From assembly GCF_001677475.2 (NCBI RefSeq), contig NZ_CP015229.1: a DNA stretch of 64,000 bases; one strand, given 5' to 3'. Positions 58,630-60,670 of the stretch are shown in pieces. Within the stretch, counting starts at the first letter, position 1; every line of letters begins with the position of its first letter. The position numbers and the translations under genes are program-made. The notes under the pieces are model-generated. The model saw only the letters and a program-made list of their open reading frames with translations. It made no database searches and was not told the origin of the DNA. This stretch comes from Escherichia coli. GTDB lineage: Bacteria > Pseudomonadota > Gammaproteobacteria > Enterobacterales > Enterobacteriaceae.

Positions 58630-59193
58630 TCAGCGATGCAGGAAATTAGCCAGCAGTTGATGTCCTTGTTCGCTAAGAATACTTTCTGGATGGAACTGCA
58701 CGCCTTCAAGATCCCACTGGCGATGGCGAATCCCCATAATCTCGCGGGTTTCGCTCCAGGCCGTCACTTCAAAGCACGCTGGTAATGAGTCAGGTTCCAC
58801 CACCAGCGAATGGTAGCGTGTCACGGTAAGTGGATTTGCCAGCCCCCGAAATACGCCCTCACCGCTATGTGTAATCGGTGAGGTTTTGCCGTGCATGACC
58901 TTTGCGGCGCGCACAACTTTGCCGCCAAATGCCTGCGCCATTGCCTGATGACCGAGGCAGACGCCAAGAAGCGGCAAGCGTCCGGCATAGTGACGAATAG
59001 TCTCAAGGGAGATCCCGGCTTCATTGGGCGTACAGGGGCCAGGTGAGATGACAATTTTCTGCGGTTTAAGGGCGTCGATATCCGCCAGCGTCAACGCATC
59101 GTTGCGCTTAACCAGCACATCCGCCCCCAGTTCACAAAAGTACTGGTAGAGGTTCCAGGTGAAAGAATCGTAGTTATCAATAAGCAGGATCAT
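58630..59193 (-). CDS. pabA: Aminodeoxychorismate synthase glutamine amidotransferase component PabA
   Basis: 187-aa class-I GATase [29 protein letters not shown]... with catalytic GVCLGHQ. Confidence 0.96.
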
Positions 59194-59224
59194 GGCGGCT
59201 CCGGTACGAAAGAACCGCGCTATT

Positions 59225-59827
59225 TTACTCAGATTCCCCGGCTTCGCTTACCACTTTGCTAAATATCGTCTGCAGCGCGGTGAGATCCCCCATTGCCCCA
59301 CTCTGATTTGCCTGATTCCAGGCCTCTTTTTCGATACCCTGCCAGCTCAGTTGGTAGCCCGCATGAATCGCCAGCTGCTCGAAGAAGATCCGCTGTGCCA
59401 GACCACTTCCCACCCGGAAGGGATGCAGCACGTTGATTTCACAATAGTAATGTGCCAGCCGCTCGACGAACTTCCCTTTCTCCAGGCCAACCAGATAACC
59501 TTCTTCCTCCAGATCCTGCATCAGGGCATTGCCCTCTTTTTCGATATAAGCAAAGTGGCAGAACGGCGTATCGCCCTGATAAATATCAACTTCACGCAGT
59601 TGCCCTGCCCAGTCGAAAATATCCTGATACAGCTGGCGATGGATAGTGCGCAAATGCGGTAAACCGCGCACCAGCGGACCAAGCTCAATGGTCGCAGCAC
59701 GCAGCGCCGTCATTTCGTAAGCGGCCTGTTCCAGCCGCTGTTGCTGGCGGATGTTCAGCCGGTTACGCATGATATCAAGGCCAGGATAAAGATACGGATC
59801 GCGCCCTTCGCCGAATTTATCGCTCAT
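59225..59827 (-). CDS. fic: Fic-domain protein (putative AMPylase)
   Basis: 200-aa ORF containing the Fic motif [18 protein letters not shown] Shine-Dalgarno lies inside the yhfG 3-prime end. Confidence 0.95.
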
Positions 59828-59984
59828 AGTGCCTCCTCAGCTCTTCAAGGCGCGCTAAAGCCTCTGCGGCAGTAAGAGTGACTAAAGGCATCTCGACGCC
59901 TTCAAGACGGCGACTGGCCTGGAAATTACGATTACGCTGAAGCTCCCAGAGACGGGACTTTTGCTTATCGGTGAGTTTCTTCAC
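59817..59984 (-). CDS. yhfG: YhfG, small protein encoded upstream of and overlapping fic (antitoxin-like partner)
   Basis: Hand translation from GTG 59982-59984 with GGAGG Shine-Dalgarno 7 nt upstream: [55 protein letters not shown] (55 aa); stop TAA 59817-59819 overlaps the fic start. Confidence 0.8.
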
Positions 59985-60057
59985 TTGATGCCTCCCTGAA
60001 CGTGTCCATTTGCCACAAGTATAAGCGGCAAATCCGGGTTACGCCGGGAGAGCAGAA

Positions 60058-60080
60058 GCGCGGGCAAGATTGCCCGCGCG
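60058..60080 (-). terminator. Probable terminator hairpin after ppiA
   Basis: GCGCGGGCAA-GA-TTGCCCGCGC inverted repeat 9 nt after the ppiA stop. Confidence 0.5.
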
Positions 60081-60088
60081 AGAAATCA

Positions 60089-60670
<582 letters not shown>

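Follow-up and report, generated by a model that had tools for sequence, protein, structure and literature searches.

The 55-codon reading frame yhfG, carried on the minus strand of a 64,000-nucleotide stretch of Escherichia coli DNA (the window), is very probably ecficA, the first cistron of a stationary-phase, σ38-dependent yhfG–fic mRNA whose 55-residue, two-helix product plugs Fic and whose junction with fic ties the synthesis of the two proteins together. The identity of the gene, its inhibition motif, the complex with Fic, the conservation of the overlap and of the embedded Shine–Dalgarno (SD) sequence, and the position of the promoter are established either by the data presented here or by the cited structures. 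The finding of yhfG is itself already known: gene, product, partner, structure and FicA/FicT class were published between 2009 and 2016.

Identity of yhfG

All features described here lie on the minus strand. The coding sequence of yhfG occupies 59817–59984, with a GTG start at 59984–59982 and a TAA stop at 59819–59817 (from a reading of the minus strand and from pattern coordinates), and is preceded by a GGAGG SD sequence (59991–59995) located 6 nt 5′ of the GTG. The same 55-aa frame appears in the ORF listing, and no in-frame start is found upstream of the GTG; the earlier note, which had described a 55-codon GTG frame with GGAGG and this stop codon, was correct to the base. For comparative analysis, 80 species-level Enterobacteriaceae loci were fetched using the Fic protein, and nearly all of them keep GGGAGG 5′ of the yhfG start.

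The NCBIfam equivalog NF007573 matches YhfG over residues 1–55 of 55 with 128.4 bits (cutoff 77), Pfam YhfG (PF10832) matches the product with E = 1.8e-24, and 54 of 55 residues are identical to the crystallised chain of PDB 5JFF/5JFZ. EcFicA/EcFicT of K-12 (PDB 5JFF, 5JFZ; Stanger et al. 2016, PMC5033356) is therefore the same gene pair. Gene order, the 11-nt overlap with fic and the upstream region all match in the K-12 locus, with 2 mismatches in 311 nt; the differences are S51 (AGT) in K-12 versus R51 (AGG) in the window and a few Fic substitutions away from the signature loop.

The locus was matched in 5425 of 5426 complete E. coli genomes. A suspicion that the ORF could escape automatic annotation proved unfounded: it is yhfG/b3362 in the K-12 annotation, is annotated in all 60 E. 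coli genomes of an even sample down the ranking of the 5425 matching ones, and has its own NCBIfam model. Newer records label it “ficA: FicA/YhfG family antitoxin.” Rfam returned no match in or near the locus. Evidence for expression of yhfG consists of RpoS dependence at the transcript level and of purified protein; among the publications listed for ribosome profiling or small proteins, none names yhfG.

The inhibition motif and the YhfG–Fic complex

YhfG was predicted to be a Fic-associated antitoxin in 2009 (PMC2701414). EcFicA (YhfG) and EcFicT (Fic) form a stable 1:1 complex with a Tm of 63 °C, which drops by 10 °C upon E28G mutation (PMC5033356). The SRRLEG sequence of EcFicA conforms to [S/T]xxxE[G/N] and inserts into the Fic active site (PMC5033356), and in the crystal S24 and E28 of YhfG contact Arg146 (R2) of the Fic signature loop (PMC5033356; PDB 5JFF/5JFZ). 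A regular-expression search with [S/T]xxxE[G/N] located this motif in the window as S24-R-R-L-E28-G29 of the α-inh helix (yhfG codons 24–29; 59898–59915), and both E28 and R146 are present in the window proteins. A motif of the SRRLEG type is kept in 76 of 80 sequences (window plus 79 loci), and S24 is invariant in the YhfG family alignment.

The arrangement is that of a FicA gene, namely a small separate protein carrying the motif, encoded directly upstream of, and co-oriented with, a motif-free fic, and it is the same in the 80 loci. The resemblance to toxin–antitoxin or Fic-inhibitor arrangements that had been noticed from the sequence is thus well founded, as yhfG is the published EcFicA, which sits in a 1:1 complex with SRRLEG in the active site (PMC5033356). 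[quoted passage not shown] YhfG would thereby inhibit a catalytic activity of Fic. As no enzymatic activity was detected for EcFicT even when the motif is mutated (PMC5033356), the label “inhibitor” is a structural rather than a functional one.

The signature loop and class of E. coli Fic

The fic gene (ecficT; 59225–59827, 200 codons) encodes a class I Fic protein that matches NCBIfam NF007672 above cutoff, with 427.6 bits, and is near-identical (about 196/200, ~98%) to PDB 5JFZ_A/5JFF_A. Its signature loop, H135–R146 (59390–59425), is a degenerate form of HxFx[D/E]GNGRxxR: Val replaces D/E, Ser replaces Asn and Leu replaces R1, and the window Fic accordingly fails a regular-expression match to the canonical AMPylase signature. 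Across the window and the 80 loci, the His and R2 (H135 and R146) are invariant (81/81), whereas just 8 sequences have R1 and a single one has the complete canonical motif. Because H135 and R146 are kept throughout in spite of this near-complete loss of the canonical motif, Fic must still do something for which the YhfG-contacted Arg146 matters.

A search for [S/T]xxxE[G/N] found no match in the 200-aa Fic protein. With the inhibition motif provided in trans on YhfG and none in Fic, E. coli Fic is assigned to class I. Class II and class III, both defined by intramolecular inhibition, are ruled out, as the motif is absent from the Fic polypeptide. This overturns a caveat of the earlier note, which held the motif to be usually intramolecular in this class: class I is defined by a motif in trans, here residues 24–29 of YhfG.

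The residues with which AMP-handling Fic enzymes bind nucleotide phosphates and Mg2+ are missing from EcFicT, and neither auto- nor target adenylylation could be detected, not even after mutation of the inhibition motif (PMC5033356). Given this result and the non-canonical Fic loop, the AMPylation assays with and without YhfG that had been suggested as a check are unlikely to be informative.

Promoter, transcript and gene order

The order of genes is ppiA–yhfG–fic–pabA–argD, with ppiA upstream in 80/80 species loci and pabA downstream on the same strand in 78/80. Directly after the ppiA stop, a GC-rich hairpin, GCGCGGGCA-AUCU-UGCCCGCGC (60058–60079), can be read from the sequence. It is likely the ppiA terminator and would form the upstream boundary of the yhfG–fic unit; a consensus terminator scan did not flag it, and its T-tract is weak.

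A published PCR fragment bears a “strictly Eσ38-dependent” fic promoter (PMC3089606), and its primers map to 60190, in ppiA, and to 59914, inside yhfG. After BanI cleavage a 256-bp fragment spans −157 to 99 (PMC3089606; we took the printed “-99” as +99). In the window, the distance from the BanI site GGTGCC (60170–60165) to the primer end at 59914 is exactly 256 bp. Because the cut reproduces the stated length, +1 can be placed at about 60012 (±1–2 nt), so that the yhfG GTG follows a leader of 28 nt, and TATACT (60018–60023), upstream of yhfG, becomes the −10 hexamer of this σ38-dependent “fic promoter.” Of 81 sequences (window plus 80 loci), 66 contain the exact 13-mer CTTATACTTGTGG and 75 contain TATACT. 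A σ70 consensus scan of 59100–60200 found no promoter; such an absence is consistent with a σ38-type promoter that has no −35 element.

Since the fic promoter maps upstream of yhfG, yhfG is the first cistron of what has been called the “fic” transcript. The two genes have been listed jointly as RpoS-dependent and are co-induced under stress. At the distal end, pabA (58630–59193) is co-oriented with fic and starts 31 nt beyond its stop, and a consensus scan found no terminator between the two, so that pabA is likely the distal gene of the yhfG–fic transcript; co-transcription of fic and pabA is something we presume from older literature.

The yhfG–fic junction

The two reading frames share the 11 nt ATGAGCGATAA (59817–59827), which encode M1-S2-D3 of Fic and Y53-E54-R55-stop of YhfG; the fic ATG is at 59827–59825 and fic is in the +1 frame relative to yhfG. 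The fic SD sequence AGGAGG (59832–59837) consists of yhfG codons R50-R51 and lies 4 nt before the fic ATG. Both the 11-nt overlap and the placement of the AGGAGG within the last yhfG codons had been claimed in the earlier note and hold exactly. The overlap is found in 79 of the 80 species loci, the exception being Shimwellia, in which use of an upstream ATG would make the overlap 8 nt and preserve the AGGAGG-N4-ATG geometry.

Codon usage at these two positions departs from that of the rest of the locus. Among 80 sequences (window plus 79 loci), codon 50 of yhfG is AGG in 59, CGG (Arg) in 19 and GGG (Gly) in 2, and codon 51 is AGG in 58. AGG accounts for 117 of the 137 Arg codons at positions 50 and 51 (85%) versus 36 of 1673 (~2%) elsewhere in the same loci; taken separately, its share of Arg codons is 1.5% in fic and 3.6% in the remainder of yhfG. 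Synonymous sites of yhfG have a pS of 0.56–0.83 between genera. The persistence of AGG at codons 50 and 51 despite saturated synonymous sites therefore points to selection on the nucleotides, that is, on the fic SD, and this comparison identifies the embedded SD as itself under selection. Both genes have a strong predicted SD:anti-SD duplex, of −11.1 kcal/mol in the case of yhfG and −12.1 kcal/mol in that of fic, compared with −3.9 to −6.1 kcal/mol for the neighbors ppiA, pabA and argD.

Two alleles of the junction are common in E. coli. The window allele, AGG-AGG (Arg51), is present as an exact 30-mer in 2138 of 5426 genomes, and the K-12 allele, AGG-AGT (Ser51), in 1721. With R51 in place of the S51 of K-12, the fic SD is GAGGAGG rather than GAGGAG, and the predicted pairing strengthens from −8.7 to −12.1 kcal/mol.

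Proposed coupling of fic translation to yhfG

The yhfG stop lies near the fic start on one mRNA, with a spacing of −11 and the promoter 5′ of yhfG. We propose that ribosomes ending yhfG would terminate 8–11 nt past the fic ATG, over a strong SD made of two rare AGG codons, and would reinitiate at, or pass on to, the adjacent SD and ATG. Fic would then be made only with its partner: its synthesis would be bound in place and time to that of YhfG, free Fic would stay low, and translation of fic would depend on translation of yhfG. Since a ribosome at 59817–59819 covers the fic start, termination and fic initiation are not spatially independent.

RNA structure masking the fic ribosome-binding site (RBS) was rejected as a basis for coupling, because folds of 121 nt and 256 nt over the RBS did not exceed shuffled sequences in stability (z = +1.54 and +0.57, respectively). 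Coupling of the RNA-unfolding type is thus unsupported, with no stable structure occluding the fic RBS. Enriched spacings for coupling are −4, −1 and −8, and efficiency drops with longer overlap (PMC12548453). The spacing of −11 falls outside this set, and an SD of this strength could drive initiation by itself, both of which speak against strong coupling.

The overlap might instead be mere genome compaction, with fic initiating independently at its own SD. The predicted strength of that SD (−12.1 kcal/mol), an RBS free of masking structure and a spacing beyond the optimal range for coupling all favor such a reading, and the last two make independent initiation a serious alternative. It is nevertheless difficult to reconcile with the exact 11-nt layout and SD being held across genera in which synonymous sites are saturated. 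Efficient coupled reinitiation, too, is known to need an SD (work cited in PMC12548453). We therefore consider compaction possible but the less probable account, and prefer coupling by reinitiation or transfer at the junction. Independent initiation would leave the identity and role of yhfG unaffected.

Toxin–antitoxin status and relation to known systems

Operon layout, motif and complex all fit a toxin–antitoxin (TA) pair. The patchy occurrence and variable context that typically, though not by definition, mark type II TA modules as mobile are not found, the yhfG–fic locus being syntenic, and vertical inheritance was inferred by the authors of the structural study (PMC5033356). Two genomes carry a broken yhfG and an intact fic: E. 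albertii NBRC 107761, in which W13 of yhfG is replaced by TGA, and E. coli PCN061, in which IS1A is inserted in yhfG, although polarity or a sequencing error may play a part. Because both keep an intact fic, free Fic may be harmless, which weakens the TA logic. Published reports conflict on this point: growth inhibition by ectopic EcFicT is stated in a review, whereas the structure paper found no activity (PMC5033356).

The prototype of type II FicTA modules, VbhA/VbhT of Bartonella schoenbuchensis, likewise has a small antitoxin encoded upstream, which carries [S/T]xxxE[G/N] and whose motif Glu forms a salt bridge with R2; the Fic folds are similar, and the window Fic matches VbhT with E = 3e-33. 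It differs in that VbhT has the canonical motif and AMPylates gyrase and topoisomerase IV, whereas the motif of EcFicT is degenerate; in that VbhA has three helices and YhfG two (PMC5033356); and in that VbhTA is plasmid-borne and mobile, whereas yhfG–fic is chromosomal and syntenic. A YhfG family profile built from 28 orthologues did not reach VbhA at E values up to 10, and the link between YhfG and VbhA rests on structure and motif in the literature. The same profile reached the experimentally characterised Pseudomonas antitoxin AntF (8WT0_B) at E = 0.0046, in an alignment that pairs the two motifs.

The Pseudomonas bijieensis pair AntF/Fic-1 (PDB 8WT0; PMC13327609) resembles the E. coli one in that AntF belongs to the DUF2559/YhfG family and is encoded directly upstream of its partner, and Fic-1 matches the window Fic with E = 1e-48. 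Fic-1 AMPylates GyrB and the AntF–Fic-1 complex deAMPylates it (PMC13327609), two activities known from the Pseudomonas pair. Class II and III Fic proteins (FICD/HYPE, EfFic, NmFic) share the motif and the Glu-to-R2 obstruction, but carry the motif in the Fic polypeptide itself, N- or C-terminally, unlike the window Fic. Phd/Doc of phage P1 also pairs a small antitoxin helix with a Fic-fold toxin, the toxin gene following in the operon, and the Phd and YhfG helices have a kink at the same position (PMC5033356). Doc differs in being a kinase acting on EF-Tu (PMC5033356), and Phd in being an autoregulatory DNA-binding protein, whereas YhfG is known as a Fic-binding protein.

The behavior of AntF raises another reading, in which YhfG would be an obligate subunit and the YhfG–Fic complex the working enzyme, with E28 as a catalytic residue in a de-modifying or other non-AMPylating reaction. 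The model for this is the AntF–Fic-1 deAMPylase, together with class II Fic enzymes that need the inhibitory glutamate for deAMPylation. In the Pseudomonas complex, deAMPylation depends on E28 of AntF (PMC13327609), and the YhfG profile picks up AntF with the motifs in register. The motif and H135/R146 of Fic are kept despite the loss of R1 and D/E, which serve AMPylation; the complex has high stability (PMC5033356), the locus is strictly syntenic and vertically inherited, the junction favors co-synthesis, and loss of yhfG is tolerated in the two natural genomes. If true, this reading would explain both the invariant motif and His135/Arg146 despite the lost AMPylation residues and the tolerated knock-outs. 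It is, however, pure analogy, and the EcFicT/EcFicA complex has no reported activity (PMC5033356); a strict deAMPylase is doubtful because EcFicT lacks the phosphate- and Mg2+-binding residues of AMP-handling Fic enzymes. We regard a catalytic role for YhfG as improbable and retain the assignment of YhfG as the FicA partner that plugs Fic.

A possible frameshift and the coding status of yhfG

Tandem AGG-AGG codons have been reported to provoke +1 frameshifting under overexpression. A +1 frameshift at codons 50–51 would fuse YhfG 1–50 to full-length Fic, giving a class II-like protein with an N-terminal inhibitory helix. The fic frame is indeed +1 and has no stop between the GGA within AGG-AGG and the fic ATG; most species have AGG-AGG, as do 2138 of 5426 E. 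coli genomes; and class I Fic proteins have been proposed to arise from class II by gene fission (PMC13327609). The AGG codons are nevertheless fully explained by their SD function, K-12 and 1721 other genomes have AGG-AGT, and in many genera one of the two codons is CGG or GGG. No natural YhfG–Fic fusion was found among the matches listed (120 of 332 homologues), all of which are 55–90 aa with PF10832 only, and the purified complex consists of two chains at 1:1 (PMC5033356). A frameshifted fusion is therefore very improbable.

The six frames of the window contain 302 ORFs that are 55 aa or longer, so the length of yhfG is not significant on its own. The dN/dS of yhfG versus other genera is 0.04–0.15 where dS can be estimated, synonymous sites being near saturation, and this pattern of substitution marks yhfG as a genuine protein-coding gene under purifying selection. 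That such frames are frequent is the one point in favor of a chance ORF, or of a regulatory uORF with a functionless peptide, and this reading can be set aside in view of the dN/dS values, the match to the curated family models NF007573 and PF10832 and, decisively, the solved crystal of YhfG in complex with Fic.

Implications

The FicA/FicT pair is built into current annotation pipelines, and its recognition here has no discovery value. The value that is left is small and lies in the reassignment of E. coli Fic to class I, against the intramolecular caveat. Two comparative observations add to what we found in the literature covered: the fic RBS is fixed by two rare AGG Arg codons inside yhfG, and the 11-nt overlap between the two genes is nearly invariant across Enterobacteriaceae.

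Setting of the yhfG–fic locus in the window

The only Rfam match in the window is an ordinary one: Alpha_RBS (RF00140; 10795–10906, − strand; 102.7 bits), the leader by which the alpha operon of ribosomal proteins is known to control its own expression. Over the 1 kb around yhfG and fic (59150–60150), just 29 of 5425 E. coli genomes reach at least 99% identity to the window (best 99.2%), the majority being 95–99% identical. The yhfG gene alone (59817–59984, − strand) is 100% identical in many E. coli genomes, so the divergence sits to either side of it, in the portions of fic, pabA, and ppiA within this 1 kb. At this locus, the window appears to represent a lineage that is uncommon in E. coli. 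In PADLOC, Fic (59228–59827, − strand) matches PDC-S04 (PDLC04838, E = 5.6e-75), a candidate model for phage defence, and YhfG has no match; a role in defence would be putative for this fic copy, which is chromosomal and syntenic.

Gene overlap, codon pair, and inhibition motif

Among the 80 species loci compared, that of Shimwellia pseudoproteus (L079:1440–1515) is the only one without the 11-nt yhfG/fic overlap. Its sequence, AGGAGGCGTTATGGATGA, suggests that fic starts at an upstream ATG, which would give an 8-nt overlap (ATGGATGA); the proposed start preserves the SD-N4-ATG geometry. The 11-nt overlap is retained where the inhibition motif [S/T]xxxE[G/N] at yhfG codons 24–29 is departed from, namely in three Trabulsiella genomes (L037, L047, L081; SRRLER, Gly to Arg) and in Edaphovirga cremea (L080; STALDG, Glu to Asp).

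Within the window, two rare AGG codons in tandem (AGG-AGG; 59832–59837, − strand) are placed exactly where a +1 slip would enter the open fic frame and join YhfG(1–50) to Fic. No YhfG-Fic fusion proteins occur among the homologue matches listed. E. coli is polymorphic at this codon pair, with AGG-AGG in 2138 genomes versus AGG-AGT (K-12 type) in 1721.

Interrupted yhfG reading frames beside intact fic

The literature on the E. coli Fic protein, EcFicT, is inconsistent: a 2024 review (PMC10886550) names it among the FicT toxins that strongly inhibit growth on ectopic expression, whereas the 2016 structure paper (PMC5033356) describes no detectable activity. Loci in which the yhfG reading frame is interrupted and fic is not were found in two genomes. 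In E. coli PCN061 (NZ_CP006636.1; L083:1654–2598), yhfG is interrupted near codon 26 by an IS1A element, on either side of which a yhfG pseudogene fragment is annotated, with fic, pabA, and argD all intact downstream. In the type strain Escherichia albertii NBRC 107761 (L005:1344–1511), codon 13 of yhfG reads TGA in place of TGG (Trp13 to stop), and the fic gene 3′ of it is intact at 95% identity. An assembly error could account for this stop instead; otherwise, the E. albertii yhfG is possibly a natural antitoxin pseudogene next to an intact “toxin.”
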